Positions 17,030 through 47,681 are shown, counted from the first letter of the stretch. The stretch is 64,000 bases of DNA from an uncultured archaeon (GCA_964342815.1 CAYFHS010000010.1:32001-96000), one strand, 5' to 3'. The notes: generated by a model from the sequence alone, not told the origin. Translations and numbers: made by a program.

Positions 17030-20000
17030 TTACTCTGCGAGATACCCCTGCGCTCCACAGGAGCTGCAGGTGACGATGGTGGGCCTCTCAATGGTGGTCA
17101 CAGGATTCATTGAACTGCAGATGTGACACTGGATCGACTGGAGGGGTGCTGCACCTGCCGCTTGTCCGGGAAGAGGTGGAGGCAATGGCGGGACCTGAGG
17201 GGGTACCGATGGTACCTGAAGCGGAACCGGCGGTGCAGCGGGCTGCTCGAATCCCGTTGTTAATCCCGGGATCGTTTCTCCCAACCCCGGTGCTCCCGTT
17301 GTATCCGGTATTAGAGGGGCCGAGGGATCCAATGAACCTATATCCGGTTGAAGTCCCGCAGGTTGAACCGGGGGGAATGTCCCAGGTTCCATGGGTGCAG
17401 GGGGAAGTGCCATGAGATTGAGGTCCTGGACACCCTGGTCGGTTGTCATTGTGGGAAGTAAGTAATCAGGTTGAATAGGCGGTGCCTGGAGACCGGCTGG
17501 TTGCTGCTGTGGAAATGGAGCGATCCCAGGAACCGTAGATGAAGGGCCGGCGGGCCAGCCCATCTGACCGGTTTGATCAGTGAATGTTTGCGAGTGCATG
17601 GGGAGGATAGGCATTCCTTGGGCACGTCCCGGAGGCGGAAATCCTCCCGGAACTGCATTCTGAGAGCCATAAGGAGGTACCATGGTTCCCTGCCAACCAC
17701 CGCCACTTGTTTGGTATTGGCCCTGCGATTGTGGAGGGAGGGCCGTGGGTGAATACATGGGATGGTGGAAATCCCTATCCCCCACTGGATATGGAAACTC
17801 CGGTGGAAATTGCTGAGAAGGAAGTGTTTCGTCAGTCTTTTTATCTTTCTTCCTGCGGCCAATCACTATTATCAAGACGACCATTGCCAGTATGATGATG
17901 CCTATAACGATAAAGACCCACCAGTACGTTGAGAGAAGCCCTTCATCGCGGGTATTCTTTGCTTTCCGGTCATTGATTTCCGAATCGTAAGTTGCTGTCA
18001 TCTCAGGGGTAGCATCGGAGGGATCATTGGGATCGAGGCCGTTCATTTTCTCCCACCAGTCCGGAAGCTTATCTCCGTCGCTGTCCGTGGTATCACCCCA
18101 TTGCTCTTCAGCCTCTTTTCCCGTGGGTTTTGGCGTGATCTCGATCTCCAGCTTCACGCTTTCATTGAAACCGAAACCGTCATCCACATGAAGATAAACC
18201 AGATACTTGCCTGCCTGGTCCAGTACCGCCTGGGTTTCCATATTGTGACCTTTGAAAACGATCTTTTTGCTGGTCTTCCCCTTTATCACCCAGTAATAGC
18301 CAAGCTCGTCCTCTTCGTTATCTGTGGTCCCTTCAGCACTCAAACGAATTGTCGAGCCCTCCACGAAGGTCTCATCATCATAGGGTGCGTCGATCACCAC
18401 GGCAGGTGGTGAGTTGATCCATACCTGGTTCGCCTCAGACATGGCAAAACCATTCCCAACGGCATCCTTGGCTCGCCATTTTATATAGTTTTCACGACCC
18501 GGTTCGAACTCTATATCCATCAATATTATCAGGTTCTCCTTGACCACGTTATTGTTGATAATGGTCCAGTTAGTGAAAAGTTCCTCATCGTCACCCCACG
18601 CAGAAATGGAATACTCCACGGTCTTTCCGTCCACACCGCTGCCGCCCATATCATTGATTGTGATACCTGCGGATACGGTAGTTTCTGTGGATATCTCATC
18701 ATCCGGCATCGGCTCGGAGAAGGTCACCGGCGTAAGGTCCACCTTCACCGCCCGCTTTTCGCTGTATACCGGTCCGTTACCGGACATGTCGGAAATACGC
18801 CACATTACTGCATTACGGTCCCCCTCGTTGAACGTCAGCTCCGTCCATGCCCTGACCTTAACGGGATATCCCTCTTCTCCATTCTCCATTATTTCGAATT
18901 CCATCCCGTCACTGCTCCAGCCCGAAAACGTTCCCTCACCGTTCTTCCGGTAGGAGTAAGCAATACTATCGGTATCCAGGCCGTAACCGTCATTATCGTA
19001 GAATGTAATTTCTGTCCTTACTACGCTGCTCCCGAACCATTCATTGCCCATGGGAAAAAGATCGAATGCTATGGGCAGTACGCTGTCTATGTTGAATTGA
19101 AAATGCGTGGTGTTGCCCCATTGATCGTACACGTCGCAGGGTGTTATGTGAAAATACCAGCTTCCCTCTCCAAGCCCTGCAAACTCACCGGCATATGTTC
19201 CTGTAATACCGCCGTTGGGGGAATAAAGTACCTTCGTAGGCTCGGTGAGAGGAGTGCTGTCCACAGTATACGAATATCCTTTGATACCCGTTATCTCATG
19301 AGGCGGTTCCCAGGAGAAGACCGGGAGAGTGTTGTTGTAATAAATCGCCGGATCCGGATGGGTGGATGATGAAATCATGACTTCGTCCGGCCCTATGAGA
19401 TCGAAATAGATGGTATCGTTGAAATCTTCGGAGACGATCCCCGCATGATCCCGAAACCTCACTCGTATTATTTTCAGTCCGTCGGTGGGAGTGAGTGCTA
19501 TCCTCTTTTCTCCCTTGTATTCCTCCCAGGGCCCGACGTTTCCACGATCCCCTATGATCTGCATGTCCGCTATTCCGCTGCCATTATCCGAGGCATTGAT
19601 TACGATGTCCACTAGCTGCTCATTCACCGAGAGCGCTCCCTCTTCTATTGTTATATTGCCCACAGGCTTTGTCACGTCTATCATCAGTTTCTTTACCATG
19701 GAATAATTGCTCGAAGCATGATATGCATCTCTGGTACGAACACGCCAGTAGTACACTCCGTCCTTCAGCTCATCCTGGACCGTATGTTCCGTAAAAGGGG
19801 GATCGGATGAATTCACCCATGATGTGTTGTAGACTTGGGAGATCAGTTCTTGATCGTAGTATATTTCCACAAGATATTCAGATTGTATGTCGTTCTTATC
19901 TGGATCGGTGAAGTTCCATTCCAGTACGGGCTGACGTGTACCCTGCCAAATATGGGATGGAGGTCCGCTTGTTTCCGGATCGCTCACCAGATCGTATTCG

Positions 20001-21145
20001 ATTATTACCTTTTCGACGTAAGGCTGAACATCCTCATCGTTGGTGCTGAAGGTGGCATTCCACATCAGGTGGGACCCGCGGTTGCGGAAAACATGGTTCG
20101 TCCCGTTCTGCATGGTTACCCAGTTTACTCCGTCCACGGTCATGTTGTAAATTATATTGGTACCCTGGGGGCTGTACTCGTACCAGGTTATCCTCGCAGC
20201 CCCTATAGTGGGCCATTTCATATAGAGCGGATTTGACTGAATTGTGCCGTATTTCGAGGAGCTTGCGGTAACGTGGTATCCTATGAATCCTTTGTAGTTA
20301 TGATTGGAACTGCCGTCCGACGAGGTCCCCGCTCCATTGTACTGGACGCTGCCGTGGCAGGGATGGTTCTCCACCATGTGCGCCCGCGTATTGATGCCGA
20401 ACAGATAAGGATTCAAGGGCCTGGCGCCGTTCTGCCGGCAGTAGGTATAGGCTTGTCTCTCGGAGATAGTCCCGTAATCCTTGTAAAAATAGAGCTTGCC
20501 GTTCACCACCTTGCTGTCGCCGAACTGTCCCAATCCCGGCGTATCTCCGTTGGCGTAGGCCAGCACGCAGTAATGGCGCTCGTTCTTGTTCCTGGTGTTA
20601 ACACTGTTCCACCTGTTAGTGCTGGTATATGCAGTGTTTGCGTCCCTATCCCCCACCCATCTCTCATGCTGTTCGTAGGGTGCGTTGTACCCGTAGTGGT
20701 TAAAATCAGGCGCTCCCATGAACTGGGCGCCGTACATGTTGGCCATTTCCTCCGCCTCGTCCCAGGTCATCAGACCAAAATTAAAAGTGAACCACTGGGA
20801 CCGGTCCCCGCATCCTCCGTTGACTGTAGCATCGTACTTGAATTTCATCGTATTATGGGAATTTCCCGAGAGGACTGCTCTTCCGTTGAAAGTATCCACA
20901 AGGCACGAGCTGTTCTCCCGGTTGATGAAGGTCCTGTTGTTAAAGTCCTCGATTATGACATTCCCGTAGCGAGTATCCGTCTCTGATTCCTCGGGCCGGT
21001 CCAAATTGAGAACGACAACTTTGGAATTCGTCTCCGCTCCATTGTCGATACCAGAATACAGGGGAGTCGAAAAGCTCATAAGGATAATAATTCCCACAAC
21101 AAGAATAACGTTCCGTCGATTGGCTGTATCCCGAAATATTTCCAT
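17030..21145 (-). CDS. Array paralog A: single-pass surface protein, tip = two C-type-lectin-like repeats
   Basis: Signal peptide, TRYG..IEDF motif, variable tip, conserved Ig/Fn3-like stalk, DSDGDKLPDWWE TSP3-like motif, TM, Pro-rich tail, CxxC..CxxC. Confidence 0.9.
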   Translation of the reverse strand: MEIFRDTANRRNVILVVGIIILMSFSTPLYSGIDNGAETNSKVVVLNLDRPEESETDTRYGNVIIEDFNNRTFINRENSSCLVDTFNGRAVLSGNSHNTMKFKYDATVNGGCGDRSQWFTFNFGLMTWDEAEEMANMYGAQFMGAPDFNHYGYNAPYEQHERWVGDRDANTAYTSTNRWNSVNTRNKNERHYCVLAYANGDTPGLGQFGDSKVVNGKLYFYKDYGTISERQAYTYCRQNGARPLNPYLFGINTRAHMVENHPCHGSVQYNGAGTSSDGSSNHNYKGFIGYHVTASSSKYGTIQSNPLYMKWPTIGAARITWYEYSPQGTNIIYNMTVDGVNWVTMQNGTNHVFRNRGSHLMWNATFSTNDEDVQPYVEKVIIEYDLVSDPETSGPPSHIWQGTRQPVLEWNFTDPDKNDIQSEYLVEIYYDQELISQVYNTSWVNSSDPPFTEHTVQDELKDGVYYWRVRTRDAYHASSNYSMVKKLMIDVTKPVGNITIEEGALSVNEQLVDIVINASDNGSGIADMQIIGDRGNVGPWEEYKGEKRIALTPTDGLKIIRVRFRDHAGIVSEDFNDTIYFDLIGPDEVMISSSTHPDPAIYYNNTLPVFSWEPPHEITGIKGYSYTVDSTPLTEPTKVLYSPNGGITGTYAGEFAGLGEGSWYFHITPCDVYDQWGNTTHFQFNIDSVLPIAFDLFPMGNEWFGSSVVRTEITFYDNDGYGLDTDSIAYSYRKNGEGTFSGWSSDGMEFEIMENGEEGYPVKVRAWTELTFNEGDRNAVMWRISDMSGNGPVYSEKRAVKVDLTPVTFSEPMPDDEISTETTVSAGITINDMGGSGVDGKTVEYSISAWGDDEELFTNWTIINNNVVKENLIILMDIEFEPGRENYIKWRAKDAVGNGFAMSEANQVWINSPPAVVIDAPYDDETFVEGSTIRLSAEGTTDNEEDELGYYWVIKGKTSKKIVFKGHNMETQAVLDQAGKYLVYLHVDDGFGFNESVKLEIEITPKPTGKEAEEQWGDTTDSDGDKLPDWWEKMNGLDPNDPSDATPEMTATYDSEINDRKAKNTRDEGLLSTYWWVFIVIGIIILAMVVLIIVIGRRKKDKKTDETLPSQQFPPEFPYPVGDRDFHHPMYSPTALPPQSQGQYQTSGGGWQGTMVPPYGSQNAVPGGFPPPGRAQGMPILPMHSQTFTDQTGQMGWPAGPSSTVPGIAPFPQQQPAGLQAPPIQPDYLLPTMTTDQGVQDLNLMALPPAPMEPGTFPPVQPAGLQPDIGSLDPSAPLIPDTTGAPGLGETIPGLTTGFEQPAAPPVPLQVPSVPPQVPPLPPPLPGQAAGAAPLQSIQCHICSSMNPVTTIERPTIVTCSSCGAQGYLAE

Positions 21146-21332
21146 TACCGTATCACCATTCCGGATTAATTTTCCATTTATTGAGAAAAGTTCTGATGTC
21201 CGTTAGTATTTGAAAAGATGGGTCATATAGAGACCTTCATCATAATTATTTATTACCCCGAAAAAATCATGAATTATCCACAATTTATTGGGCAAACAGA
21301 ATTGTCTCTTGAAGAGCGGCTGTACGCAAAGA

Positions 21333-24300
21333 TCACCCTGAGATATACCCCTGGGCACTGCAGACCGGGCATGTGATCACCGTCGGTCTTTCATTTGTTG
21401 TGACCTGATTCATGGCCCCGCAGGAATGACATTGCACGGATTGTGGTTGAACTGGCACCTCCGCCGCAGGCGGGGGAGGGGATATAGGTTGTTCTGTGGG
21501 GGGAAGCGGGGGTAACGTAGCGGTATCGAAAAGGTCGTCTATTGATGGTGGGCCCGCAGCCGGCGGTGCAGCCGGTTCGGGAATTGCAAAGAGGTCCTGC
21601 ACGCTCAATTGAGGCTCGGAAACCGGAGGAACTGCCGCTTCAACAGGGAATGGATCCGGTGCGATAAAAGCCGTACCGGCAGAAGGCACGAATGCCTGGG
21701 CTGCCGCTTGCGTCGGTTCCGCCTGGGACATGGGGAGATCGTCCGGAGCTGGGGGAAGCGCCATGAGATTGAGATCCTGCGTGCCTTGGTCCGTGCTAAT
21801 GGGCGGAAGGGTGTAGCCAGGTAGCACCTGTTGTGGACTGACATTTTGTTGGTACTGGGGCGGATTTGGCTCCTGGCTTCCCAATGAAGGCGCGGGGGCT
21901 GTGGGTGAATACGCCATTGAGGTCTGTGTATGCATGGGCAGAGCCGGTCTTTGCTGTTGAAAGGTCTGGGGAAGAAATCCACTGACGCCTGGAGATTGAA
22001 TTCCCCCTGTGTTCCATCCACTTCTCACACCAGAGGGGTATTGACCCTGAGCTTGGTAAGTTTGGGGTCCCGCCGGGTAACCGGAGTGGTGAAAATCCCT
22101 GCCTCCCGCGGGATAAGGTCGCTCGGTGGGATAATGCGGTACCGGAACTTTCCTTTTTTTCTTTTTCCGTCTCCTCCTGGCAAGAACTATGATGCCAATG
22201 ATCATGATCAATATTATGCAACCGATGATAACCAGAACCCACCAGTACCTTGATAGAAGGTTTTCTCCGGAGGACGCCCCCATCTTGCCTTCATCAATTA
22301 CATTTCCGTATTCCTTTTTTTCATCGGGTGTGGCATCATTCGGATTATTTGGGTCCAGCCCATTTTCGATCTCCCACCAGTCCGGGAGCCCGTCGCCGTC
22401 GCTGTCAACTACCTCATCAGGATCATCGGGGCCTTCGTCCCCGAGGGTTTTGGGCAGCACCTCAATGTTAATCTTCAAACTCTCGTTGAATCCATGACCA
22501 TCATCCACGTAGAGATAGACTACGTATCTCCCTTCGTTTTCAAGAAAGGTCTTCAACTCCATACCGGAACCTTTGAAGAAGGTTTTTTTACTGGATTTTC
22601 CCTTTATTACCCAGCTGTAGTTTAGTTCGTCGCCCTCGTTATCCTTGCTACCCGTCGCATTCAGGCTAATGACGGCATTTACCTGGAACGTTTCATCATC
22701 GTAGGGGCTCTCCATAACGGGTACCGGCGGAGAGTTTACCCAAATTCGATAGGCATCGGAGCTGCTGGATGGATTCCCCACGGCATCTCTGGCCCGCCAT
22801 TTGATGTAATTATTTTTACCTGGTTCGAATTCTATATCCAGAAATACGTCCATGGTCTCCTTCACCATATTGCTGTTCAAAGCCGTCCAGTTGATAAAAT
22901 ATTTATCGTCGCCCCCCCCCCATTTGGATATGGAATATTCCACGGTCTTTCCGTCCACACCGCTTCCACCAATATCGCCGATGGAGATGCCGCAAGATAC
23001 GTAGTTTTCGTTGGAAACATCGTCCTCTCCAGGAACGGGTGCGGAGAATACCACAGGTGTGAGGTCCACTTTCAGCAAGAGCATTTCGCTCTCAACCGGG
23101 CCGTTGCCTGCGAGGTCGGTTATACGCCATCTTACGGCATTCTCACTTCCTTCGCTCAATTCGATATAGACCCACGCCCGGACCTGCGCTGGATTTTTCC
23201 CGGCAGATTCTTTCAAAACCTCGAATTCCATCTTTTCAGCAGTCCATTGTGAGAACCGTCCCTCCCCGCTTTTTCTGTATGCGTATTGAATACTTTCGGT
23301 ATCCAGGCCGACCCCTTCAACATCTTCGAAGACCACACTGGTACGTATGGTCGTCTCGTTGAACCAATTACCCTTTTCGGGGCTTAATTCATAGAAAATG
23401 GGTTGGGCGCTGTCGATATTGAAACGGAAATGAGAAGTATTACCCCACTGGTCATAGATGTCCGCGGTAGTTATGTGAAAATACCAGGTTCCCTGGGCAA
23501 GCCCGGAGAATTCACCGGCAAATGTCCCGGTAAGATGGTTATTCGGGGTATAGAGCACCTTCGTTGGTTGGGTCAGAGGCGAGCTGTCCACCATGTAGGA
23601 ATAACCTTTTATTCCAGCCACTTCGTCCGGCGGTTCCCATGAGAATACGGGGAGAGTGCTGTTGTAGTACATGTCAGGATCAGGATGAGTGGGCGAGGTG
23701 ATCATCACTTCCCCGGGTCCCTTGAGATCGAAATAGATGGTATCGTTGAATCTCTGGGAAATGATGCCTGCGTGGTCCATGAACCTGACCTCTATCATTT
23801 TCAGACCGTCCGTGGGTGTAAGCGCGATCCTCTTTTCCGTCTTGTATTCCTCCCATGGCCCCTCCTCCCCCTTGTCTCCGATTATCTGCATGTCAGCTAT
23901 TCCGCTTCCGTTGTCGGAAGCGTTGATCTTCAGGTTCACCAGCTGTTCGTTTACGGTGAGCGCGCCTTCTTCTATGGTGATATTTCCCTGAGGTTCCGTG
24001 ATATCGATCATAATCTTCTTCAAGGCGGAAAAATTGCTCCAGGCGTGATAAACATCCTTCGTTTTTACCCGCCAGTAGTACACGCCGTCCTCAAGTTGCT
24101 CACTCACGGTATGCTCAGAGTCCGTGGAATTGACCCAGGACGAATTGTATACGAGATCATTCATTTCCTGGTCACTGTAAAGCTCAACAATGAAATCGGA
24201 TTGGTGATCTCCCTTGTCGGGGTCTGTGAAGTTCCATTTCAATGTCGGTGTGCTGTTCCCCTGCCATTTTACCGAGGACGGAGCGAAGGGTTCCGGATCG

Positions 24301-25406
24301 CTTACCAGATCGTATTCTATGATCACCCTGTCGATATAAGGCGTGATTTCTTTATCACCGGTGGTGAGAGTGGCGTTCCACATTAGGCGTGAGCCGCGGT
24401 TTTTGAATACGTAATTCGTATGATTCTGCATGGTTACCCAGTTCTTTCCGTCCACGGTCATGTTATAGACGATATTCGTTCCCTGCGGTTTGTGCTCATA
24501 CCAGGTCATCCTTGCGGCACCGATGGTGAAACGCTCCGTGTAGAGCGGGATCGACTGTAAGAATCCAATTTCGGCGTTCTCACCCCCGGCGATACCGCTT
24601 ACTGTGAATCTCAGCATCCAATCACCCCTTGGAGCGCTGCCCCGACCCCCATTGGCCGCGTAGCATATCTGGGTATAACCGTTACCGTCAATGTCCCGCC
24701 CGCCGTTCTGTATGGTATGCCCGAGAAACATATTGTATATGCAGTCGGCGTCGTTTGGTCTCGTTACGTCGAACCATACCTGGTCGCCGTTCTGCAGCGA
24801 AAAGGAATCCATGTTCTTGTAAACGAATCCCTGATGCGGTCCGTACCCGCCACCCGAACCGAATGGAATACAGTTGCCCGGCCCTCGCGGATTCTGAGGT
24901 ATCGCACTGCATAGCTCGGCGTTCCCCCGCATGAATCTCACTCCGCTGATGGTATTCTGCCTCCACCCTCCTCCACCGCCCCACCATTGCCATACGAACT
25001 TCCCGCTTCCATCTCCACTGGTAGTCGTATCGCAAACCTGGGTACATGAATTATCACCCAAATATGCTCCTGTCGGTACAAGTTTTAGTATCATTCCCCC
25101 ACCGGGAAACAGAAAACCGCTGGAAATACTTGCACGGCCTTCCCGTGTATCCACGCCGCACGATGTATTCGACTGGTCGATACCTGTAAAATTATTAAAA
25201 TCCTCTATGATCACCCTTTGGTACCGGTTTTCCGTCTTGGGATCCACAGGCGAGCGCTCAACGGCGATCTCCGCTTGAGACCGTCTTTCGCCGTTTGAGT
25301 TATCCACTTTCGATTGTTGGAGGGCAGGTAAAAGAAAAAGTAATAATATCGCCGTCACAATTATTCGCGTGAACAGTAAATGTTTCGAAGAATTATTGCT
25401 ATGCAT
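21333..25406 (-). CDS. Array paralog B: tip = unrecognised Cys/Gly/Trp-rich domain; contains an in-frame G10 tract
   Basis: Same scaffold as A; unrelated tip sequence. Confidence 0.9.
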   Translation of the reverse strand: MHSNNSSKHLLFTRIIVTAILLLFLLPALQQSKVDNSNGERRSQAEIAVERSPVDPKTENRYQRVIIEDFNNFTGIDQSNTSCGVDTREGRASISSGFLFPGGGMILKLVPTGAYLGDNSCTQVCDTTTSGDGSGKFVWQWWGGGGGWRQNTISGVRFMRGNAELCSAIPQNPRGPGNCIPFGSGGGYGPHQGFVYKNMDSFSLQNGDQVWFDVTRPNDADCIYNMFLGHTIQNGGRDIDGNGYTQICYAANGGRGSAPRGDWMLRFTVSGIAGGENAEIGFLQSIPLYTERFTIGAARMTWYEHKPQGTNIVYNMTVDGKNWVTMQNHTNYVFKNRGSRLMWNATLTTGDKEITPYIDRVIIEYDLVSDPEPFAPSSVKWQGNSTPTLKWNFTDPDKGDHQSDFIVELYSDQEMNDLVYNSSWVNSTDSEHTVSEQLEDGVYYWRVKTKDVYHAWSNFSALKKIMIDITEPQGNITIEEGALTVNEQLVNLKINASDNGSGIADMQIIGDKGEEGPWEEYKTEKRIALTPTDGLKMIEVRFMDHAGIISQRFNDTIYFDLKGPGEVMITSPTHPDPDMYYNSTLPVFSWEPPDEVAGIKGYSYMVDSSPLTQPTKVLYTPNNHLTGTFAGEFSGLAQGTWYFHITTADIYDQWGNTSHFRFNIDSAQPIFYELSPEKGNWFNETTIRTSVVFEDVEGVGLDTESIQYAYRKSGEGRFSQWTAEKMEFEVLKESAGKNPAQVRAWVYIELSEGSENAVRWRITDLAGNGPVESEMLLLKVDLTPVVFSAPVPGEDDVSNENYVSCGISIGDIGGSGVDGKTVEYSISKWGGGDDKYFINWTALNSNMVKETMDVFLDIEFEPGKNNYIKWRARDAVGNPSSSSDAYRIWVNSPPVPVMESPYDDETFQVNAVISLNATGSKDNEGDELNYSWVIKGKSSKKTFFKGSGMELKTFLENEGRYVVYLYVDDGHGFNESLKINIEVLPKTLGDEGPDDPDEVVDSDGDGLPDWWEIENGLDPNNPNDATPDEKKEYGNVIDEGKMGASSGENLLSRYWWVLVIIGCIILIMIIGIIVLARRRRKKKKRKVPVPHYPTERPYPAGGRDFHHSGYPAGPQTYQAQGQYPSGVRSGWNTGGIQSPGVSGFLPQTFQQQRPALPMHTQTSMAYSPTAPAPSLGSQEPNPPQYQQNVSPQQVLPGYTLPPISTDQGTQDLNLMALPPAPDDLPMSQAEPTQAAAQAFVPSAGTAFIAPDPFPVEAAVPPVSEPQLSVQDLFAIPEPAAPPAAGPPSIDDLFDTATLPPLPPTEQPISPPPPAAEVPVQPQSVQCHSCGAMNQVTTNERPTVITCPVCSAQGYISG
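22912..22921 (-). repeat. G10 homopolymer (C10 on +) inside paralog B
   Basis: TGG GGG GGG GGC encodes WGGG; this segment is one residue longer than in the six other paralogs. Confidence 0.8.
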
Positions 25407-25500
25407 CTACGATTACACGGTATACAATATATTTTATGTTTTCTCTTTATGTTTCCACCGATAATACAAAGTCATGCTTGGGAAGAAGATTCTGGAATAT

Positions 25501-28500
25501 CTATTCTGTTACTAATCCCTGGGCTCCGCATGAGGTGCAGGTAACAATGGTGGGTCTTTCGGCGGTGGTCAAAAGATTCATAGCTGTGCAGACATGACAT
25601 TGTACGTTTGAGAATACCGATTGGCCGCTTGCAGGAGGCTCCTGCCCGAGAGGCTGCGGTGCTTCCGGCGGCAGTGGTGACGGTGCGGCAGGTATGCCTG
25701 GAAGATCATCGTAGGAACTGGCTTCACTTCCCACAGAGGTGATTGGTGGAGGAACCGCGGGGGGTACAATGTTCGGTGAAGATGGTGGCATGGGTGACGG
25801 TGCAGCGGTTTCCGGTGCAGGATAATTTCCGGAGGCGACCGCTGATGGATCTATTTCCGGTGCCGGCGTCGGGTATTGTGTTGCTATTTCAGGTGTGACA
25901 TCAGGGAACGGTATGGCAGGTGATTGTATTTCCTGAGATGACGGTGGTACGGGGTAGGGTGCTACTATTTCAGGTACAGGGACTGCAGTTGACGGGTTAT
26001 GGTCCGCGATGGGGTCATTGCCCATGGTACCATATGTAACATCTTCGTACTCGGGGGCAGGTGGCAGTGCCAAGAGGTTCATATCCTGTAATCCCTGATC
26101 GGTGGTAAAAGAGGGAAGTAGATAATTGGGCGCGGAACTTGATGCTGTTTGAGCGCTGGGCGGCAAGGTATGTAGGCCGGGACTTATGGGCTGTTGGCTC
26201 CAGCTTCCCGGCATCCCTGCTTGATTGGGAGAGCCCGAGTAAGGAGCCCCCGGACCCGGAGGTAGTGCTAATGGTGGATTGGCGCCGGCCCCATACTGAG
26301 GGTTGCGGCCCCCGTACATTCCACCATATCCCGGTGTACCCATGGGAGCGTACCCGGAAGGTGCAAAGCCCAGGTTCTGACCCTGCGGGTATGGATGGAA
26401 TGATTTCGGGGGCGGGATCTGGGTCGGGATTTGTTTTTTCTCCTTTCTTTTCTTACTTGCGGCAAGCAGGATAACGGCAATCACCGATATCAATATGAGA
26501 GATCCGATGATGATCAACAGCCACCAGTATTTTGCCAGCAGGCCATCTTCAGCGGCGTTATTGGACTTCTTTTCATTGAGTTCATTCTCATAGGCATCCA
26601 TTTTTTCCTGGCTAGCATCATTAGGATCGTTGGGATCAAGGCCATTCTCTATCTCCCACCAATCGGGCAGCAAATCCCCGTCGCTGTCAATGGTATCGTC
26701 CCAAACGTTCCCATCATCGTCATCTTCATCCACGGGTCTCGGCACGATCTCTATGCCCAGTTTAACACTCTCATTGAAACCCAGACCGTCATCCACGTAA
26801 AGGTAAACTAAAAATCTGCCTGGCTGGTCCAACACCGCCTGACAGCCGAGACCATGTCCCTTGAACACAGTTTTCTTGCTGGTCTTCCCCTTTATGATCC
26901 AGAAATAGCTTAGTTCATCCCCTTCATTATCTTCGCTCCCGGAGGCGTTCAGCTGTATGATGGAACCTTCCTTAAATGTCTCTCCGTCATAAGGTTTCAT
27001 GATTGACGGAACCGGTGGCGAGTTGATCCATATGCGGTAGGTGTCAGAGATTGAATAGCCGTTCCCCACGGCATCCTTCGCGCGCCACCGGATATAATTA
27101 TCCTTTCCGGGCTCGAACTGTATTTCCAATGAAACGTCGATGGACTCCTTCACCATGTGGTTACTGATGGCGGTCCAGTTTTGAAAATATTTTTTATCCT
27201 CTCCGTACTTGGATACGGCATACTCTATTGTCTTCCCGTCAACACCGCTGCCTCCGGCATCTGAGACGGTTATGCCGCAGATCAGCATGTCTTCAAGAAA
27301 TATTTCCTCGGTCTCCGGGACCGGCATGGAGAAGGTCACCGGGCTCTTGTCAACCTTAACGGACCATTTCTCGCTCAGAGCCGGACCATTGCCGGCCAGA
27401 TCGCTTATTCTCCACCTTATTGTATTATCGCTGCCCTCCGACAGGGGGATGTTCACGTAAGCCCGAACTTTCACAGGATTATTCTCGGTACTCTTCTCCA
27501 GTATCTCGAATTCCATTCCGTCATTGGTCCAGGATGAGAACGAGTTTCCCCCGGATATCCTGTATGAATATTTGATGCTCTCCAGATCCAGACCAAAACT
27601 ATCGATATCAGTAAAGACGGCCTCTGCCAGCGCATTGCCGGAGTTGTACCAAACAGTATTGTCGGGCCCCATTTCGGAGATCAGAGGGATAGAGGTATCG
27701 ATATTGAACCGGAAATGGCTGGTATTACCCCACTGATCGTATATATCGGAGGCACAGATATGGAAAAACCAAGTGCCGTCGGTGAGACCGGAAAATTCCC
27801 CTGCAAATGTCCCGGTAATTTCGCTGTTCGGGGTATAGAGAACCTTTGTGGGTTCCGTAAGGGGTGAGGGATCCACCAAGTAAGAGTATCCTTTGATGCC
27901 CCCCACCTCGCGGGGAGGGTCCCATGAAAAGACCGGAAGCGTGCTGTTATAATACATCTCGGGCGTGGGATGTGTTGTGGAGCTTACATTGATCTCATCC
28001 GGACCCAGCAGGTCAAGATAAATTGTGTCGTTGAATATTTCCGAAACGATGCTCGCATTGTCCCGAAACCTGACTCCTATAGTTTTCAAGCCGTCCGATG
28101 GTACGAGTGAAATCCTCTTTTCTGTCTTGAACTCTTCCCAAGGGCCATCCTTTCCCCTGTCGTTGATGATCTGCATGTCGGCAATACCGCTGCCGTTATC
28201 AGAGGCATTGATGCGGATATCTACCAACTGCTCGTTCACAGTAAGGGCACCTTCCTCGATAGTTATGTTTCTCACCGGTTTGGTCACATCGATCATGATC
28301 TTTTTTAAGGCTGAAAAATTGCTGGACGCATGATATATATCCCTTGTCCGCACCCGCCAGAAATACGTTCCATCTTCCAGGTCATCCTCAACAACATGTT
28401 TTGGGGTAGTGGAGTTTTTCCACGAGCTGTTGAAGACCATGTCAGTTCCCTCATCGTCGCTGTACATTTCAACGAAATACTCCGATTGATGGTCGCCGGG

Positions 28501-33945: not shown

Positions 33946-34225
33946 ATGCTACCACCTTGTTATACACGTATAAATTATCGTAAAAATAAAGATTACGATA
34001 TAGCTTATTAAGCGGGAAATCGAATCCCAATTAAGAAATACTCTATCTTTTTTCCTACATTTAAATTTTTATATTCCTACTTCGAATTTTTTAGATTTCT
34101 AAAATTCACTATTATTTACACGACATCAAAGCAAATAAATCAAGAACCTCATGTCAGCGACAAAACATTCTTGGGGCTGTCCCTAAATAGAATCGATCCT
34201 TATGTCAAGAGACAAAAAGGGTAAT

Positions 34226-38386: not shown

Positions 38387-38581
38387 CTAAAAACTAACAC
38401 GGTAAACAAGATATTTCATTTTTTCTCAATATGTTGTCATAAGAGTGAACTTTAACCAGTTGTAAGGCATCGGAGAGTCATCAATGTTGCGTGCTCATTA
38501 ATGATGGTATTTCAGAATGACTGCTTTTTTTCGAAAATAAAATCAATTGAAATAGGGTTAGGCCGAGATCGCCGTCCAATT

Positions 38582-41500
38582 TTATTGTGCGAGATATATC
38601 TGGGTGCCGCAGGAAACACAGGTCACGGTGGTGGGTCGTACGGCAGTCATAACCTGATTCATGGAGCCGCAGCCATGACATTGTATACTGGGCAATTGCG
38701 GAATACCCGGGATAGGAGGAGGAGAAACCATATCCGGTACCGGAGGTTCGGGAGAAGATAAACCTGGGGGCGGCGACGAAAAGATATTGTCCAGTGGACT
38801 CGAACCGCCTTCCACCGGTACCGCCGGAGCGGGCGTAGGGGGCGCTTCCGGGGAGGGTGTTGAATTGATTCCCGGTAAAGGCGGTATGTAGATAGGCTGC
38901 ACCGCACCTGATTGCTCGAATGCGCCAGGCAAACCTTTTCCACTTGTTCCGTCGCCTGCAATTGGGATTTGCCCCCCTGGGGATGTTTCCTCGGGAGGTG
39001 CAGGGGGAAGGGCCATGAGATTGAGGTTTTGAGTCCCCTGTTCGGAGGTGAACGCTGGCAGGCTGTATGCTGGCGGGGTGAAAGACGGTGAAGCTGACTG
39101 AGCTTCGGTTCCCTGTGCAGTGGTTATAGGGCTCTGAGGTGGAATGGCCATGTCCTGCACGGGCTGTATTTCCGCCGGTCCCGTGTACATTGGAAGAGCG
39201 GGTCTTTCAGGTACAGGGCTAGCACCTGCTGCAGGTGGCAGTTGTGCCATGGGATACTTCATATAATTTGGCTGACTTCTTTCCTGTCCGCTTCCCCACC
39301 CACCACTGCTTCCATAAGCGGGAGAGTACGCGGACTGAGATTGGTGGGAAGCATACATCTCGGAATACTGCGGATTATGGAAATCCCTGGAACCAATTGG
39401 ATACGGCTCGGGAGAATAGCGCTGCTGTAAGGCGTTTTCCATCTCTTTTTCTTCTTCTTCCTTCCTCTTCTTTTTCGCCACAATGACTATTATTCCAACG
39501 ATCAAAGCCACTATGATAAAGCCCACTATAAGAAGAACCCACCAGTACCTCGACAGGAGGTTTTCCTCCCCGACTTCCGCACCCATATGTTCTGACAGTT
39601 CAACTCGATAAAGATCCTTTTGTTCATCAGAACCGTCGTTGGGATTGTCCGGATTCAGCCCATTGAGTTTCTCCCACCAGTCCGGGAGCCCGTCGCCATC
39701 GCTGTCAGTTGTATCCTCCCATCGTTTTATAATATCGATACCGGTGGGCTTCGGAGTAACCTCAATGGTAAGTTTTAAGCTCTCGTTGAAGCCGAGTCCG
39801 TCATCCACATGAAGGTACACCGAATACTTACCCTGCTGATCCAGTGCTGTGCTTGCATCGGGCCCCCAGCCTCTGAAAACGATCTTTTTACTGGTCTTGC
39901 CCTTTATCTCCCAGTAATAACTCAGTTCGTCCCCCTCGTTGTCCTCCGTCCCGGAGGCATTCAGGCGGACAGCGGCGCCTTCTTCGAATTTCTCGTCGTC
40001 GTATGGTAGGGCGATGACCGGCGTCGGGGCAGAATTGACCCAGACCCTGACTGCATCGGACACGGCGAAATCGTTCCCCACCGCATCCTTCGCACGCCAC
40101 TTTATATAGTTGTTCCGACCGGGTACGAACTCTATATCCTGCAGGATCACCAGGGTCTCCTTTACCATATTGTTGTTGGGATTTGTCCAGTTTATAAAAT
40201 ATTTCTCGTCGTCCCCATATGCGGAAATCGAATATTCCACAGTCTTTCCATCCACACCGCTTCCACCAGTATCGCTGATGGTCAGACCTGCTGAAACCAG
40301 GGTATTCTTGGATACCTCGTCATGGGCCGGAAGCGGGTCGGAGAAGGTCACTGGGGTAAGGTCCACTTTGATCGCATGCCGTTCGCTTTCGATGGGTCCG
40401 TTCCCTGAAATATCGTTTATACGCCACATCACGGCATTCCTGTCCCCTTCTACTAGATCGAGCTCAACCCATGCCGTGACCTTCACAGGATTGTCATCGA
40501 TACCTTCTTCCAGTACATCGAATTCTATTCCATCACCGGTCCATCCAGAGAATGTTCCCTCGCCGCTTTTCCGGTATGAATAGGCAATACTTTCAGTATC
40601 CAGACCGTAACCGTCTGCGTCGGTGAAGGTGGCCTCGACGCGGATTTCGGTGCGTCTGTACCATTCGCCGTCCAATGGAGAAATCTCGGAGATCGCCGGA
40701 GCTACGCTGTCTATGTTGAATCTGAAATGGGTGGTATTACCCCATTGATCGTAAATGTCGCAGGGAGTGATGTGGAAATACCATTTTCCCTCGCTCAGTC
40801 CCGCGAACTCCCCAGGATAGGTTCCCGTAAGATCGCTGTTCTGGTTGTAAAGCACTTTGGTGGGTTCGGTGAGAGGGGTACTGTCCACCGTATAGGAATA
40901 TCCTTTTATGGCGGTCACTTCATAGGGTGGGTTCCATGAGAAGACAGGAAGCGTGCTGTTGTAATACACCAGCTGGTTAGGGTGAGTAGGAGAGGTCACA
41001 TCGATATCGAAGGGTCCTTTGAGATCGAAGTATATGGTATCGTTGTAAAGCTCGGAAACGATACCTGCGTTGTCCCGGAACCTCACGCTGATCTTTTTCA
41101 GGCCGTCGAGAGGGGTGAGAGCGATACGTTTTTCGGTCTTATATTCCTCCCACGGCCCTTCGTTCCCCCGGTCCCCAATGATCTGCATATCTGCTACGCC
41201 CGATGCGTTGTCCGAGGCATAAATGGCAATGTTGACCAGTTTATCGTTAACAGAGAGGATATCCTCCTCTATGGTGATGTTGCCGACGGGTTTCGTCACA
41301 TCGATCTTGAAACTCTTAATGACCGAGTAATTGCTGGCGACGTGATAGACGTCCTTGGTTCGAGCCCTCCAATAATATATGCCATCCTCCAGCGCTTCGG
41401 TGATGGTGTGCTCTGTAAAAGTTGAATTCACCCATGACGAATTGTAAACCTGATTGGTCAGTTCCTCATCGTCGAATATCTCAACCTGGTATTCGGACTA

Positions 41501-42829
41501 GTGGTCGTTCTTATCAGGGTCTGTGAAATTCCATTTAAGCTTCGGTGTTCGAGTGCCCTGCCAGACCTCGGATGTTGGTAGATGGGGCTGGGGACTGCTG
41601 AAGAGATCGTAGTCGATGACCACCTTGTCGATGTAAGGGCTGATGCTTTTATCGTTGGTCTTTATGGTGCCGTTCCACCTCATGGGCGACCCGCGGTGTT
41701 TGAATACGTGGGTGGTTCCGTTCTTCATATTGACCCAGTTCACCCCGTCCAGGGTCAGTTTGTACTCGACATCGGTACCCTGGGGCTTGTGCTCGTACCA
41801 GGTCATCTTGGCGGCGCCAATTGTCTTGGTGTCATCGTAAAGTATCTTGGACTGGAAATGTGTTATGTTTGTTGGAGGTTCAACGTCATCACCGAGATAG
41901 GCGTTTCCGTCACTGATCTTATACTTCAAGACGTTTGCGTTGTTGGATGATACACAGTAGTTCTCGCCGTCGAATGCAGAATTGTAGATATTCGTCTGAA
42001 CCCTGAATTCACCTATCTTCTGATTGTTGTGGGGGGTGAACATTGCCACTCTCTGGTAGTCCCGATTGTAGCCTCCGATATACAGAATACCATTGGCAAA
42101 AGCCATGGTCCCATAATCATAGCATGTGGCGCCTATACCCCATGTTCGTACATGCTGACCATTGTCCTTTCTTAGAACGTAAACATTGCTGTCATACCAC
42201 CTCATTGCATAGACATAGGTATCATCACAGCATACGGAACCCGCCGTGCTGCCGAGGTTGTATGACCATATCTGATTGTTTCCCCTGTCACTCCATTTGT
42301 AAATCCTGCGGTTCCCCCAGTTCGCGGTATAATAGGTGCCGTCCTTGTCACCCCAGAGCTGCATCATCTGGTTCGACCCGGAATTGAAAGTACCCAAATA
42401 CTGCCCGGCCCTGGTATACCTGTAGATGGTGCTTCCCGACCAATGAGGATACCAGAACTCATTATATTTCGGGCTGAATCCCCCGCCGTGAGAACGCGTA
42501 TCCATATTCATTGATCCCTCGTTTGTTGGCGGGATCACAGGGCTGCTGCCCCAGAGATAGGCTCGGCAGTCCATGCTGCGAACAGAGCATGTAGTGTTGG
42601 ACCGGTCCACCATGGTGTAGTTGTTGAAATCCTCCACAACTCGATTCGCAAAGCGCGTGCCGGATAACTCCGCGTCCGGGGCCAAGACCTTTTCGATAAC
42701 AGTATCTTTAGGTCTTTCAATGGATGACCCGTGAAAAACCAGGAGAAGCATCATGATAAATACGACAAAAGCAAACGTTTGTTTCAACAAACCTTTTTCA
42801 GTGAAGAAAGACTCAATTGGCATATGCAA
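38582..42829 (-). pseudogene. Array paralog F (beta-propeller tip), interrupted by one in-frame TAG at 41500-41498; either a nonsense allele or recoded (probable start ATG 42823)
   Basis: ORFs 41498..42829 and 38582..41431 are in one frame; DKNDH*SEYQVEIF aligns with D-H/I/Y-Q-S-E/D in all six other paralogs. Confidence 0.88.
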
Positions 42830-43038
42830 TCACCTAAGACACCGGTGTGAGAAATGATGGTCCGAATACACGTTAAAATTATTTGGTGAGACCATCAAAA
42901 TTTATTATAGATCGGCTTTATCTTTCTTCGTACTTATATATTTTTCATCTCTACCTCGAAATTAATTTATTTTGATATTTGAATTTAGGTCTAAAAAAAA
43001 GAGAGAAATATTTATTCAGTTTTTTTATTAAAAACCAC

Positions 43039-46000
43039 TCAAGGAGCTGGAGGTTTTGGGGGCGGTTGCGGAGAGGTTTTGGGGGTTTTCGGACCGAAAA
43101 TATCGTCGAGAACATCGTCCTCGGTGCTCATGGGGGGAGCAGCATGGGATTCCATTGATTCAGGAGGCGAAACAGCAGGGGCGACCGATCCGGATTGGGC
43201 TTCCGACCATTTTGTTGAGGGTGAGGGGGGAGATATTACTGGGGATCCGGAAACGGTTACTGGATCGGGTGTAATATGTGAGGCTGATGGAGGTGCTATC
43301 ACGGTGGGTTTGGGCATGCTTGTGGGCTCACGTGTTCTGGGTGATGGTGTTGGAGGTTCTATCACCGTGGATTTTGACATGCTTGTGGGCTCAGGTGTTC
43401 TGGGTGATGGTGTTGGAGGAGATATAATGGGGGTTTCAGAGACTAGTCTTGGATCAGGTGTTATCGGTGATGAAGGTGCTATTACCGTGGGTTTGGACAT
43501 ACTTATGGGCTCGGGTTTTATGGGTGTTGGTGTTGGGGGAGATATATTGGGGTATTTAGAGACTGGTATTGGGTCAAGCGTTATGGGTGATGGTGTTAGG
43601 GGAGATATAATGGGGTTTTCAGAGACTGGTGTGGGATCCGATGTAATTTGTGAGGCTGATGGAGGTGCTATTATTGTGGGTTTGGACACGTTGATGGGCT
43701 CCGGTTCAACCGGCGATGCTGTTGTGGGTGATATTGCAGTGGTCTCCGGGACCATAGTAATTGGTATGAGTGATTCCACAGTCTCCGAAGGGTAGGTTGG
43801 CTCCTCGAAGGTTTTTTTCATCTCCTCATCCCCCGCTGCAGGGGGAAGTGCCAATCGATTTAGGTTTATGGTACCTTGCTCCGATGTGAAAGAAGGTAAA
43901 GAATATTGGGGCGGGGTCGGCGAGCTGATCACTTGTTCATACTGTTGTCCCTGCTGAGCGGGCTGGATTGAAGGAGTCACGGGAGAAATTACATTAGAAG
44001 GTTGTTGTACGGGAAAGATCTGTTGCTGCGCTACAGGGACCTGTGAAGCCATGGGAAGGGCAAGAGGCATATGTCCGGGCCCCGTAGAACCGGCAGACGG
44101 CAGCTGAGGATAAGTATCCGGACGGCCCCCGAATTGCGTGTTCGCCCCTTTTGAGGATCCCCAGCTCGAGAATTGTGTTCCATAAGCCGGATGTGACTGG
44201 TAAGTGTTTGTCATCTGCGAATATTGGGGTGGGTAAAAATCCCTGCTTCCAACCGGGTACGGTCTCTCCGGAGCTATTCGATTTGGCATGGCGTTTTCCG
44301 TTTCTTCTTCCTTCTTCCGCTTATTTTTTGCCACAACAACGATACCGATGATCACTATTAAAATTAGTGCACCGATGATAATCAGAACCCACCAGTATTT
44401 TGAGAGCAGACCTTCCTCCGTGATTTTAGCGCCTTTTTGTTCATCCAATTCCCTTTTGTAGGTTTGTTTCATCTCCTGGGTCGCGTCATGGGAATCATTT
44501 GGATCAAGGCCGTTCATTTTCTCCCACCAGTCCGGCAGCGAGTCCTCGTCGGTGTCAGTAGTATCCTCCCATCTCACTTCAGCTTCTTTTCCGGTAGGTT
44601 TCGGTTCGATCTCAATATCCAGCTTCACGCTTTCATTGAAACCATAACCGTCGTCCACGTGTAAATAGACCAGGTATTTACCCGGTTGATCCAATGTTGC
44701 CTGTGTCTCCTTCTGGTATCCTCTGAATACGATCTTCTTGCTTGTTTTTCCCTTTATCACCCAGTAGTAACCAAGCTCGTCTTCCTCGTTGTCATTGGTC
44801 CCTTCGGCACTCAGGCGAATTGAAGAACCTTCCACGAAGATCTCTTCATCATATGGCGCGTCGATCACAGGCTCCGGGGGTGAGTTGATCCATACCTGGC
44901 TCGCTTCGGACACTGAATAACCATTTCCCACTGCATCCCTTGCCCGCCATTTAATATAGTTATCACGACCCGGTTGAAACTCAATATCCACCAATATGTT
45001 CAAACTCTCTTTGATCATGTTGTTGCTCATACCCGTCCAGTTGACAAAGTTTTCATCGTCGTTACCCCAGGCGGATATGGAATACTCTACGGTCTTTCCG
45101 TCCACACCGCTGCCGCCCATATCGGTGATCGTGATACCTGCGGACACTGTAGTTTCCGTGGATATCTCATCATCCGGGATCGGATCGGAAAAGGTTACCG
45201 CGGTTAGGTCCACCTTGACCGCCCGCTTTTCGCTGTTCACCGGTCCGTTGCCGGACATATCGGAAACACGCCATATCACAGCATTCCGGTCACCTTCATT
45301 GAACACGATATCGGTCCATGCCCTGACCTTGACGGGATAACCTTCTTCCCCGTCCTCCAGTATTTCAAAATCCATCCCGTCGCTGTTCCAACCCGAAAAT
45401 GTTCCCTCCCCGCTCTTTCTGAAAGAGTAGGCAATACTGTTGGTATCGAGCCCGTAGCCGTTTCTGTCGTAAAATGTTGCTTCAGTTCTTACACTGGTGG
45501 TCCCGAACCAGACATTCACAGATGGAACAAGCTCGGAAACCACGGGAAGGACGCTGTCGATGTTGAATTGAAAATGGGTGGTATTACCCCATTGATCGTA
45601 CACGTCACAGGGTGTGATATGGAAATACCAGGTTCCCTCCCCGAGTCCGGCAAATTCACCTGCATATGTTCCGGTAAGGTCCCCGTTAGGGGAATAAAGC
45701 ACTTTTGTAGGCTCCGTAAGAGGAGTGCTGTCCACAGTGTACGAATATCCCTTGATACCCGTAACCACATACGGAGGCTCCCAGGAGAATACCGGGAGCG
45801 TGCTGTTGTAATAGACCAGGGATTCGGGGTGGGTGGAAGATGAAATTATAACATCGTATGGTCCCTTGAGATCGAAATAGACCGTATCATTGAAATCTTT
45901 CGAGATTATACCGGCATGGTCCCGGAACCTGACACTGATTTTTTTCAGTCCGTCAGTGGGAGAAAGAACTATTTTTTTCTCAGTATTATATTCCTCCCAG

Positions 46001-47681
46001 GGTCCCTCGTTTCCCCTGTCACCGATGAGCTGCATGTCAGCCACACCACTGCCGTAATCCGAGGCATTGATCCGTAGTTCGACCAATTTATCATTGACCG
46101 ATAGCACATCCTCCTCTATGGTTATATTTCCAACTGGCTTCGTGACATCGATCATGATTTTCTTAAGTACTGAAAAGTTGCTTGCGGCGTGGTATCCGTC
46201 CTTTGTTTGCACCCTCCAGTAATAAACACCATCGTTGAGTGCTTCATTGACCGTATGCTCCCAGAATGAAGAATTTATCCATGATGAGTTATACCGAATT
46301 TCATTCATGCTTTCATTGTCATAGATTTCCACGAGATAATCCGACTGTATGTCGTTCTTGTCGGGATCGGTGAAATTCCATTCGAGTTTTGGAATGTTGG
46401 TTCCCTGCCATGTTGTAGAGCTGGGGGCGTATGGCTCCGGTTCGCTGAACAGGTCGAACTCGATTGTGATCTCTTCCATGATGGGTCCGTCATCTACATC
46501 TTCAGCCGTAAGCGTGGCATTCCACATCAGCTTCGCCCCCTTATGGTAAAAATGTGGTTTTCACCTGGGGTTATCTCCTCCCAGTTCACACCATCGGCTG
46601 TAACCTTGTAGTCTATGCTCGTACCCTGGGGTTTGCTTTCCACCACGTCGAGTCTAACAGCTCCGATAGTATGTTTTCCCTGATAAAGCGGTTTCGACTG
46701 AACGTACCTAATCTTTGAAGTGGGATCCACACGGTCGCCGAAGTAGGAGTTACCTTCAGAAATCCGATATTTGGATACCGAGTTGCCGTTATCCGACACA
46801 CAGTACTCTTCCCCGTTGTACGCCATATTGTATATGTGCCGATTAGTCCGAAAATCTCCCAGATAGTTACCGTTGCTTGGATTGAACATACCGACCCTTC
46901 TATGATCGCGATTGTATCCCCCGATATACAAAATGCCATTGGCATAGGCCATGGTACCGTAATTATAACAGGTTGCGCCAATATTGAAGTTCCTCACGTT
47001 CTGCCCGTCGCTCTTTCGAAGCACTCTGACCTGGCTGTCATGCCATCGCATAGCGTAAACGAATTGACTATCGCAGGTTACCGATCCCGCGGTGGACCCT
47101 ATATTGAAAGACCAGACCTGTCTAACTTGCCAATTGCCGGGGTCCACTGCCCATTTTTTAATAGTATTGTATCCCCAATGGGCTCCGTAGAAACTTCCAT
47201 CGACATCGGACCAGACCTGCATCATCTGCCGTTCGCCATTATTGAACTGCCCCAGCCCCGAATATCCGCTGTTGTACCTATAGATAGTATTTCCCGACCA
47301 CTGTGGATACCAGTACTCATCCACCATGGGGGAAAAGCCGCCTCCGTGTGAACGGGTGTTCATATTCACTGTGCTAACATATGCCGGGGAAATGGACTTA
47401 CTTGATTCGAAAGTGATCTTCCCTGCTTTCGTGTTTATGGTGCAGGATGTGTTGCTTATGTCGATATTGTTGAGATTTTTAAATTTCTCAACAATTTTAT
47501 TTCCATAGCGTGTGTAGTAGGGCGGAACGTCGGGTAAGACTGTTGATTGGACCTGTCCCGATCTCTCCGGGGAGACCGCTACCGGGGGATGAATTGTGAA
47601 GGATAAGAGTTGGACGAGAAGAACGCAAACGGCCAATAGACTGATCCAGCTATGCTTTACCCGAAATTTATCTATTGACAT
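43039..47681 (-). pseudogene. Array paralog G (beta-propeller tip), split by a 1-nt frameshift in a T5 run at 46548-46552; tail has tandem repeats and no Zn ribbon
   Basis: Adding one T restores NHIFYHKGAKLMWNATL, matching NYVFKNRGSRLMWNATL in B, and gives a 1547-aa ORF. Confidence 0.88.
43218..43706 (-). repeat. About 8 degenerate 63-bp tandem repeats encoding 21-aa Pro/Ser/Thr units
   Basis: GGGTGATGGT recurs at 43339 and 43402 (63 bp apart); units such as TSDPTPVSENPIISPLTPSPI and TLDPIPVSKYPNISPPTPTPI. Confidence 0.85.

Follow-up and report, generated by a model that had tools for sequence, protein, structure and literature searches.

Bacterial RTX adhesins project their ligand-binding domains from companion split domains (PMC12077191, PMC10865825), and the carbohydrate-binding module (CBM) of one such adhesin has been expressed together with its split domain (PMC12077191). 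A comparable presenting device appears to operate in an array of seven paralogous genes, G1 to G7, found at positions 17030-47681 of a 64,000-nucleotide window (the whole stretch of DNA analyzed) from an uncultured marine Thermoplasmatota archaeon. Judged from sequence, the products probably form a lineage-specific archaeal family of glycoprotein-like, type-I membrane surface proteins, most likely ligand-binding adhesins or receptors, with ancient heads and homogenized stalks. Literature searches found no published description of this family. As far as that literature extends, the family is undescribed, although its way of presenting domains and its overall logic have a precedent in the RTX adhesins. 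New features are the nested head, a catalogue of the head classes, head and stalk trees that disagree, a profile of selection along the protein and a distribution mapped at family level.

The array proteins resemble LapA-like RTX adhesins, such as MpIBP, Vibrio cholerae FrhA and Aeromonas hydrophila AhLap (PMC5550230, PMC10865825, PMC12077191), in having a long tandem immunoglobulin (Ig)-like stalk and Ca-binding motifs. In both groups, unrelated folds (CBM, peptide-binding and vWFA domains in the RTX adhesins) bud from a split beta-sandwich with their termini side by side, as suggested for the array by structural models, since two models with different tips align their flanks to the same PDB chains. 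Unlike the RTX adhesins, the array proteins lack RTX repeats (G1-G5 give no Pfam match to HemolysinCabind or other RTX families), a type-I secretion signal and an N-terminal retention domain. They are instead exported by Sec, span the membrane in type-I orientation, end in a cytoplasmic tail and belong to an archaeal host. Each carries a single N-terminal, membrane-distal head, and diversity is spread over 7-12 paralogs rather than over several heads in one giant protein.

Other described systems share individual parts. The Leptospira Len proteins (LenA-F) are a paralogous surface family with an endostatin-like domain and bind laminin, fibronectin and complement regulators (PMC2063517). They have the endostatin/DUF1554 domain of the tip called E here in common with the array, but they are small bacterial outer-membrane lipoproteins, whereas tip E is nested in a sandwich within a 1386-aa archaeal membrane protein. 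Among phage proteins, the phage 812 tripod protein has CBM-like sandwich domains (PMC13433997). The phage 812 baseplate (9euf chain 0) gives the best match of the split sandwich over a discontinuous range, the phi11 receptor-binding protein (RBP; 5efv) has a five-bladed propeller platform, and the HFTV1 tail (9h4p) has a sandwich that aligns to the same flank span. This similarity is structural only, at 13-16% identity, and the array, which has no phage genes, encodes membrane-anchored cellular proteins. Polymorphic toxins and tail fibres have a terminal variable module, spare or silent cassettes (and immunity genes) nearby and frequent exchange between close strains; in the array, the tip is internal, the non-propeller tips are single-copy in the genome and head order is unchanged in a congener and a metagenome contig.

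Open reading frame (ORF) calls and translations reveal seven consecutive, co-oriented minus-strand ORFs or ORF pairs, which bears out the initial annotation of seven paralogs with one layout. The array it described is real, although only five of its seven genes are intact and three more full-length copies lie on other contigs. The intact genes are G1 (17030-21145, 1371 aa, head class A), G2 (21333-25406, 1357 aa, class B), G3 (25501-29772, about 1410-1423 aa, class C), G4 (29773-33945, 1390 aa, propeller head) and G5 (34226-38386, 1386 aa, class E). G6 (38582-42829, 1415 codons, propeller head) is interrupted by one in-frame TAG, and G7 (43039-47681, about 1548 codons over two frames) has a propeller head and a long repeat-rich tail. 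The TTG at 29772 that opens the G3 ORF directly adjoins the G4 stop codon, and the G3 start is probably an ATG 12 codons further in (region 29736-29772). G4 and G3 may be co-transcribed, with a short gap between them if the ATG is used.

All seven translations share one order: a hydrophobic signal peptide, an N flank, a variable tip, a C flank, a stalk, the motif D-S-D-G-D-x-L-P-D-W-W-E, a transmembrane (TM) helix and a Pro-rich tail. The conserved N flank of about 42 aa (T-R-Y-G-N-x-I-I-E-D-F-N-N ... G-R-x-x-L) and the conserved C flank of about 95 aa (Q-S..L...I-G-A...W-Y-E..P-x-G-T ... I-E-Y-D-L) enclose a tip of 185-230 aa. In the stalk of about 640 aa, a strand motif, W/Y-x-V/I-x...D..G-N, repeats at intervals of about 90-113 residues. 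The stalk can be read as about six Ig-like domains, and its Pfam matches, to Ig_Rha78A_N, Big and PKD, are weak. The D-S-D-G-D-x-L-P-D-W-W-E motif scores as TSP3_bac in G2 (Pfam). Each protein has a single TM helix immediately followed by an R/K cluster, and the tail, at 273-429 aa, contains 14-21% proline. Each ectodomain carries 15-23 N-glycosylation sequons, where its composition would predict 10-12, and each tail carries 0-2, a distribution consistent with a glycosylated ectodomain.

In G1, the N flank lies at 20861-20986, the C flank at 19970-20245, the TM helix at 17858-17923 with its R/K cluster on the cytoplasmic side, and the C-terminal CxxC...CxxC Zn ribbon at 17033-17128, all on the minus strand. 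Equivalent ribbons stand at the 3' ends of G2-G6. The ribbon had been proposed for all seven proteins; this holds for G1-G6 and fails for G7 and its intact orthologue. The G7 tail (43039-44400) exceeds those of the other genes by about 130 aa and contains tandem Pro/Ser/Thr-rich repeats of about 20-25 aa. It stops after a D-D-I-F-G motif, as does that of the orthologue (P0010).

The variable segment has sharp borders. Mean pairwise identity in the seven-gene alignment is about 0.43 in the N flank, 0.10-0.17 in the tip (G1 aa 96-300) and 0.43-0.81 in the C flank and stalk, the drop that a check suggested in the initial annotation had anticipated. Identity is also low in the tail, except for one conserved island and the Zn ribbon. 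A family set of 58 members was retrieved from 5.8 billion proteins, with tip borders defined by flank hidden Markov models (HMMs). In all 58, the insert sits between the same two flank-profile positions, which confirms the single slot originally proposed, and the tip coordinates given at that stage agree with the HMM-defined borders to about 10 nt. The inserts fall into seven classes. Across classes, BLAST gives nothing better than E 0.2 and hhalign probabilities are all below 4%, with a working positive control, so the claimed lack of homology between tips is supported as far as these comparisons can detect it, and some tips have clearly different folds. One slot is therefore used by at least two distinct folds and by five to seven unrelated sequence families.

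The most frequent head is a five-bladed beta-propeller. This class has 32 members in the family, including the tips of G4 (32983-33663), G6 (41864-42544, 67% identical to the G4 tip) and G7 (46710-47399, 52% identical to it), all on the minus strand, which upholds the propeller call made at the outset for these three genes. PDB profile searches match the propeller tip to Pizza/PknD NHL propellers (E 1e-10). An AlphaFold2 (AF2) model of the G4 head, built from 30 sequences with a predicted local distance difference test score (pLDDT) of 84, aligns to the five-bladed bacterial glutaminyl cyclase 3mbr with a VIA Z of 20.5 and a root-mean-square deviation of 2.9 over 204 of 236 residues. Further structural matches, after glutaminyl cyclase, are YjiK, NHL, olfactomedin and the phi11 RBP platform (Z 14.2).

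This ranking raises the possibility, rather improbable on balance, that the array encodes surface enzymes or a structural coat, with propellers acting as glutaminyl-cyclase-like catalysts and stalks forming a canopy over a possibly wall-less cell. Glutaminyl cyclase also occupies rows 2 and 4 of an Atlas fold search, and concerted stalk evolution, described below, would fit stalk-stalk packing. Against catalysis, identity to the cyclases in the structural alignment is 13%, and the tip has no Pfam match to Glu_cyclase_2 (PF05096) at E <= 1. In phi11 RBP, olfactomedin and NHL domains this fold is used for binding, as a platform, and other heads of the array appear to be of lectin or adhesin type.

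Tip E of G5 (37526-38089, minus strand) matches Pfam PF06482 Endostatin at 71.6 bits against a cutoff of 29.4 (E 8e-20), and the isolated tip matches PF07588 (DUF1554) at 29.4 bits against 27.5, which upholds the endostatin/DUF1554 assignment. Against the Leptospira LenA/B family NF047482 in NCBIfam, it scores 20.3 bits, below the cutoff of 300, so that the domain alone is shared.

Tip A of G1 (20246-20860, minus strand) had been described as two C-type lectin-like domains (CTLDs). Its relatives are five family members and two metagenome fragments, the fragments coming from a word-indexed homology search, and it has no sequence match in Pfam, NCBIfam or PDB. The AF2 model of the G1 head is poor (pLDDT 54, from a shallow alignment). 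In this low-confidence model, residues 37-151 (G1 86-200) align to about 35 CTLDs with Z 6.3-8.2 over about 80 aa. The first half of tip A is thus tentatively CTLD-like, and the second half is unmatched. If so, tips A and E might share a CTLD type of fold. Hypermutation of tip A of the kind driven by diversity-generating retroelements was considered and ruled out, as members of one genus share about 90% identity in this tip, and its dN/dS is 0.07.

The core of tip B in G2 (24564-25118, minus strand) belongs to a widespread bacterial surface-domain family. This extracellular domain of about 100 aa (tip aa 65-175) occurs in 205 representative proteins, mostly at the N-terminus of small bacterial surface proteins with PEP-CTERM, type IX secretion system (T9SS) tail or RTX-repeat features (P0075-P0222). 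The family has no relatives in Pfam, NCBIfam or a PDB profile search, which makes it a candidate new domain family. Tip C of G3 (28849-29430, minus strand) has no relatives in the word-indexed search or the PDB profile search and is 99% identical in a congeneric genome. Two further classes, H and I, were found in other genomes only. PDB profile searches gave no credible match for tips A, C, H or the tip-B family, and none of the tips A, B, C, H and I matched an NCBIfam family. In an ESM Atlas feature search, tip A drew no leads, and those for tip B were all below threshold (best 0.87).

Together, the flanks appear to build a single beta-sandwich, the N flank supplying the first strands and the C flank the remainder. 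In the G4 model, where the propeller occupies residues of about 47-264, the phage 812 baseplate chain 9euf_0 aligns over 134 aa within 8..362 (Z 14.3), and 134 aa is the summed length of the N and C flanks. A second, independent model, of the G1 head, is unreliable over most of the tip but again places 9euf_0 first, with 110 aa within 11..338 (Z 9.1). Other sandwiches that align to the same discontinuous span in this model include the HFTV1 tail, FlhE, XepA and the C-terminal, mannose-binding domain of PNGase. The split-sandwich reading, based on structural-alignment ranges and lengths together with predicted strands, agrees with the co-evolution of flanks and tip seen in segment trees. The Atlas fold search with the G4 model returned propeller clusters alone and no nested-head architecture, and no tip-less member with an undivided sandwich was found in this genome.

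Phylogenetic analysis separates the head from the stalk. The tree of the split sandwich (N flank plus C flank) requires 7 changes of tip-class label, against a minimum of 6, and recovers every one of the classes A, B, E, H and I as a monophyletic group. The tree of the 740-aa region after the tip requires 15 for the same minimum, and separate trees of the first 300 aa and last 340 aa of the stalk require 14 and 16. Genus labels, counted over the 30 members with a known genome, behave in the opposite way: both stalk trees need 2 changes, which is the minimum, and the sandwich tree needs 12. In approximately unbiased (AU) tests on the stalk, monophyly of class A costs 390 log-likelihood units (p 3e-11), and monophyly of class E (p 0.014) and of class B (p 0.0225) is also rejected. 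Head classes are monophyletic or nearly so and are conserved over three genera. It is the stalk, not the tip, that has a mosaic history.

Individual genes show the same conflict along their length. Compared with the class-A gene of another genus, G1 is 72-95% identical in the tip, dropping to 30-50% toward the membrane; compared with G7 of the same genome, it is 20-25% identical in the tip, climbing to 80-92%. The two profiles cross at about aa 400, near the junction of head and stalk. At the DNA level, the nearest relative of G1 is G2 just past the tip and then G7 (77-89%) further along. Stalk nucleotide identity among the tandem paralogs is 60-89%. Since identical tracts between paralogs never exceed 36 nt, the stalk exchanges must be old.

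Rates of change differ in the same direction. Within a tip class, tips are 72-95% identical and always exceed the stalks, at 51-85%; between genera, the values are 72-78% for tips and 51-57% for stalks. For comparison, ScpA of this genome is 93% identical to that of a genome of the same genus (G001) and 59% and 48% identical to those of genomes from two other genera (G003 and G002). The corresponding values for the C25 peptidase are 73%, 56% and 46%. Stalks therefore diverge between genera like ordinary proteins, and heads diverge more slowly, matching their lower dN/dS. The ratio is 0.013-0.07 in tips, rises to 0.09-0.13 in stalks and reaches 0.19-0.28 in tails. Heads are ancient, stable units under strong purifying selection.

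The simplest reading of the stalk trees is concerted evolution within each genus, presumably through gene conversion or recombination. Each head class would have arisen once, when the inserted domain was replaced in the same loop before the three genera split. Sandwich and insert would then have been inherited vertically as a unit under tight constraint, and stalk and tail would have been homogenized among paralogs in each lineage, with the break near aa 400. This homogenization could reflect neutral gene conversion, or a requirement that stalks on the same cell fit one another or a common partner.

Alternatively, heads could have been transferred horizontally between genera and grafted onto local stalks without any stalk homogenization, a history that seems unlikely. 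Inter-genus identity of 72-78% for heads against 46-59% for ScpA, the C25 peptidase and stalks would suit such transfer, as would stalks that are monophyletic per genus. However, with vertical descent, the four- to eight-fold lower dN/dS of tips is enough to account for their higher identity. At this inter-genus distance, dS is saturated. Transfer would also have to occur several times at the same junction for each of five head classes, and the dispersed propeller copies, too, cluster by genus.

Genome searches show that the family is narrowly distributed. It occurs in 4 of 61 genomes searched, all from one GTDB family, at 7-12 copies each, with two weak matches outside. The three additional full-length copies in this genome, all of the propeller class, lie on contigs C3, C1 and C16, whereas each of tips A, B, C and E occurs once. 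In the congeneric genome G001, the order is A-B-C-propeller, as here, and the G7 orthologue adjoins the same C25 peptidase and oxidoreductase. A JGI metagenome contig (L001) reads peptidase, G7-like, propeller, endostatin. In a second genus (G002 and ENA contig L002), the array differs and includes class A and two propellers, with class H elsewhere in the G002 genome, and G003 has twelve copies, covering classes A, C, E, H and I plus propellers.

This conservation speaks to the comparison with polymorphic toxins and tail fibres in the initial annotation, by which tips would be exchanged often between constant flanks and vary within a population. The occupation of one slot by unrelated domains invites that comparison, and the 60-89% nucleotide identity of tandem stalks could support recombination. 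The evidence nevertheless largely refutes an active cassette system, which now seems very improbable. Flanks co-evolve with the tip, head order is unchanged in the congener and the metagenome contig, and tips are under strong purifying selection. Non-propeller tips are single-copy, and this genome holds no silent spare tips. The longest tract identical between paralogs is 36 nt, and matching contigs from four other runs show no rearrangement. Fixed tip-stalk pairs in relatives, named at the outset as evidence against swapping, were found: close relatives keep the same pairs in the same order. No sign of programmed or rapid tip exchange was found.

The recurrence of gene order in a congeneric genome and an independent metagenome contig, together with matching contigs from other runs, also rules out the array being an assembly artefact, a concern raised with the first description. 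The interruptions in G6 and G7 are likewise real alleles rather than assembly errors, because contigs of other samples carry identical letters. The G6 TAG (41498-41500, minus strand), which is CAG (Gln) in two orthologues, recurs unchanged in contigs from a second sample of the same study and from a run of another study. The G7 frameshift lies at a run of five G (46536-46540, minus strand; C5 on the plus strand) that changes the frame by 1 nt and recurs unchanged in a contig from a run of a further study. Sequencing error at these sites was excluded on the same grounds. Recoding of the TAG as pyrrolysine was also ruled out, because TAG terminates 22% of long ORFs and is an ordinary stop. Phase variation at the G run was rejected, as no length variants occur among the contigs compared and the run is absent from orthologues.

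Unbroken counterparts of the two disrupted genes, at 1531 and 1395 aa, exist in the JGI contig, and the frames are open in G001. Against its orthologue, G6 has a dN/dS profile like that of intact genes, which indicates that its break is recent or tolerated. In contigs of two runs (X4 and X5), one extra base follows 44536 and another base is missing 4-5 nt further on (44536-44541, in the G7 stalk); this compensated change preserves the downstream frame of the already frameshifted gene. In G003, a propeller-class gene of a five-gene array (contig C14; L014 5332-9686) is split into overlapping frames of 395 and 1108 aa, so single disruptions recur in arrays of different genera.

Surface adhesins or receptors with distinct, stable ligands, the role originally suggested, are the likely function. 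This reading draws on the type-I topology, the length of the Ig-like stalk, the excess of sequons and the display of lectin-, adhesin- or platform-type heads from a split domain. In the proposed arrangement, the chain would leave the sandwich after its first strands, form the class-specific domain and return to complete the sandwich, giving one head per protein. The head would stand on about six Ig-like domains, estimated at roughly 25 nm, followed by the Ca-binding TSP3-like motif and the TM helix. A disordered Pro-rich cytoplasmic tail with conserved short motifs, usually ending in a Zn ribbon, would lie inside. The array would then be a fixed repertoire with at least five predicted ligand specificities.

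Several observations weigh against this account of ancient heads, homogenized stalks and ligand binding. Monophyly of class C on the stalk is not rejected (AU p 0.11), and stalk clusters by genus could also arise if heads had moved between genera. The split sandwich is read from alignment ranges and predicted strands. The best structural match of the propeller is an enzyme, so these heads could be catalytic rather than adhesive. The disruption of two of the seven genes at population level may mean that some of the repertoire is being lost, and no RNA run was listed as containing the locus.

A cytoplasmic partner is suggested by the Zn ribbon and by the island of conservation in the tail. In a signaling role, possible but rather unlikely, head binding would be relayed through the TM helix to a partner that reads the tail motifs and ribbon, as an analogue of eukaryotic adhesion receptors. 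Type-I topology, the conserved island, the ribbon in six of seven genes and its recurrence on other membrane proteins of this genome all suit this role, and tails are under purifying selection, though weaker. Pfam and NCBIfam searches, however, detect no enzymatic or known signaling domain in the tail, and the G7 lineage has no ribbon even though its orthologue is intact. A more speculative extension of the adhesin or receptor reading, also of fairly low likelihood, envisages transmembrane adhesion receptors of a probably wall-less archaeon: each head would recognize a particular polymer or partner cell, stalks would pack into a canopy, and tails would dock to a cytoplasmic scaffold. Such proteins would be counterparts of eukaryotic lectin- and integrin-type receptors, with mutual fit enforcing concerted stalk evolution.

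Little is known of how uncultured marine Thermoplasmatota contact particles, polymers and cells, and this family offers testable candidate binding modules. These include an endostatin-type domain, a probable CTLD-like domain and a five-bladed propeller, each expressible with its own split sandwich. The family also appears to extend split-domain presentation, so far described for Gram-negative RTX adhesins, to archaea on another chassis with a type-I anchor and cytoplasmic tail. Conserved heads on genus-homogenized stalks provide a clear case of mosaic, concerted evolution in a prokaryotic gene family, and this separation hints at a functional requirement for compatibility among the stalks on a cell or with a common partner.

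More distant relatives in this genome comprise an eight-gene array on contig C1 and smaller groups elsewhere. The C1 genes share with the main array a tandem arrangement of single-pass proteins of about 1400 aa, a homologous membrane-proximal stalk half, a Pro-rich tail and a Zn ribbon. All the features that define this superfamily (homologous proximal stalk, TM helix, Pro-rich tail and CxxC...CxxC ribbon) are present in the array, apart from the ribbon in G7. In tblastn searches, the G1 stalk and tail match the C1 array at 32-36% over stalk aa 394-745, and the tails also match. One C1 gene has a homologous propeller (31%) directly after the signal peptide. The C1 genes appear to lack the split sandwich, because they match neither flank profile; the nested split-sandwich head and distal stalk half are thus specific to the array family in this comparison. 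On contig L002 (1511-9759; ENA SUTE22-1 scaffold_855), two single-pass proteins of about 1350 aa, directly upstream of the class-A gene, are unmatched by the flank profiles, and one has a Laminin_G_3 head (E 1e-21). Arrays can therefore mix the nested-head family with other head-on-stalk relatives.

Several genes surround the array in the window. At 15121-16551 (plus strand), a gene encodes a 476-aa protein with phage tail sheath domains (Pfam Phage_sheath_1, E 4e-11; Phage_sheath_1C, E 1.6e-7). It is solitary, between the ScpA/ScpB genes and the array, and no other contractile-system genes were noticed nearby. Another large surface protein lies at 7133-11350 (minus strand): an exported protein of 1405 aa with at least 14 FG-GAP (integrin-alpha-like) repeats, fn3 and TSP3 motifs, and a C-terminal region rich in Asn-x-Ser/Thr. 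Near G7, on the opposite strand and beyond a 781-aa ORF (47949-50294), the gingipain-type C25 peptidase (50431-54936, plus strand; 1501 aa) has a propeptide, PKD/Big domains, a TM helix and an acidic tail. This neighborhood is kept in the congeneric genome (G001, contig C92) and in the JGI metagenome contig L001.

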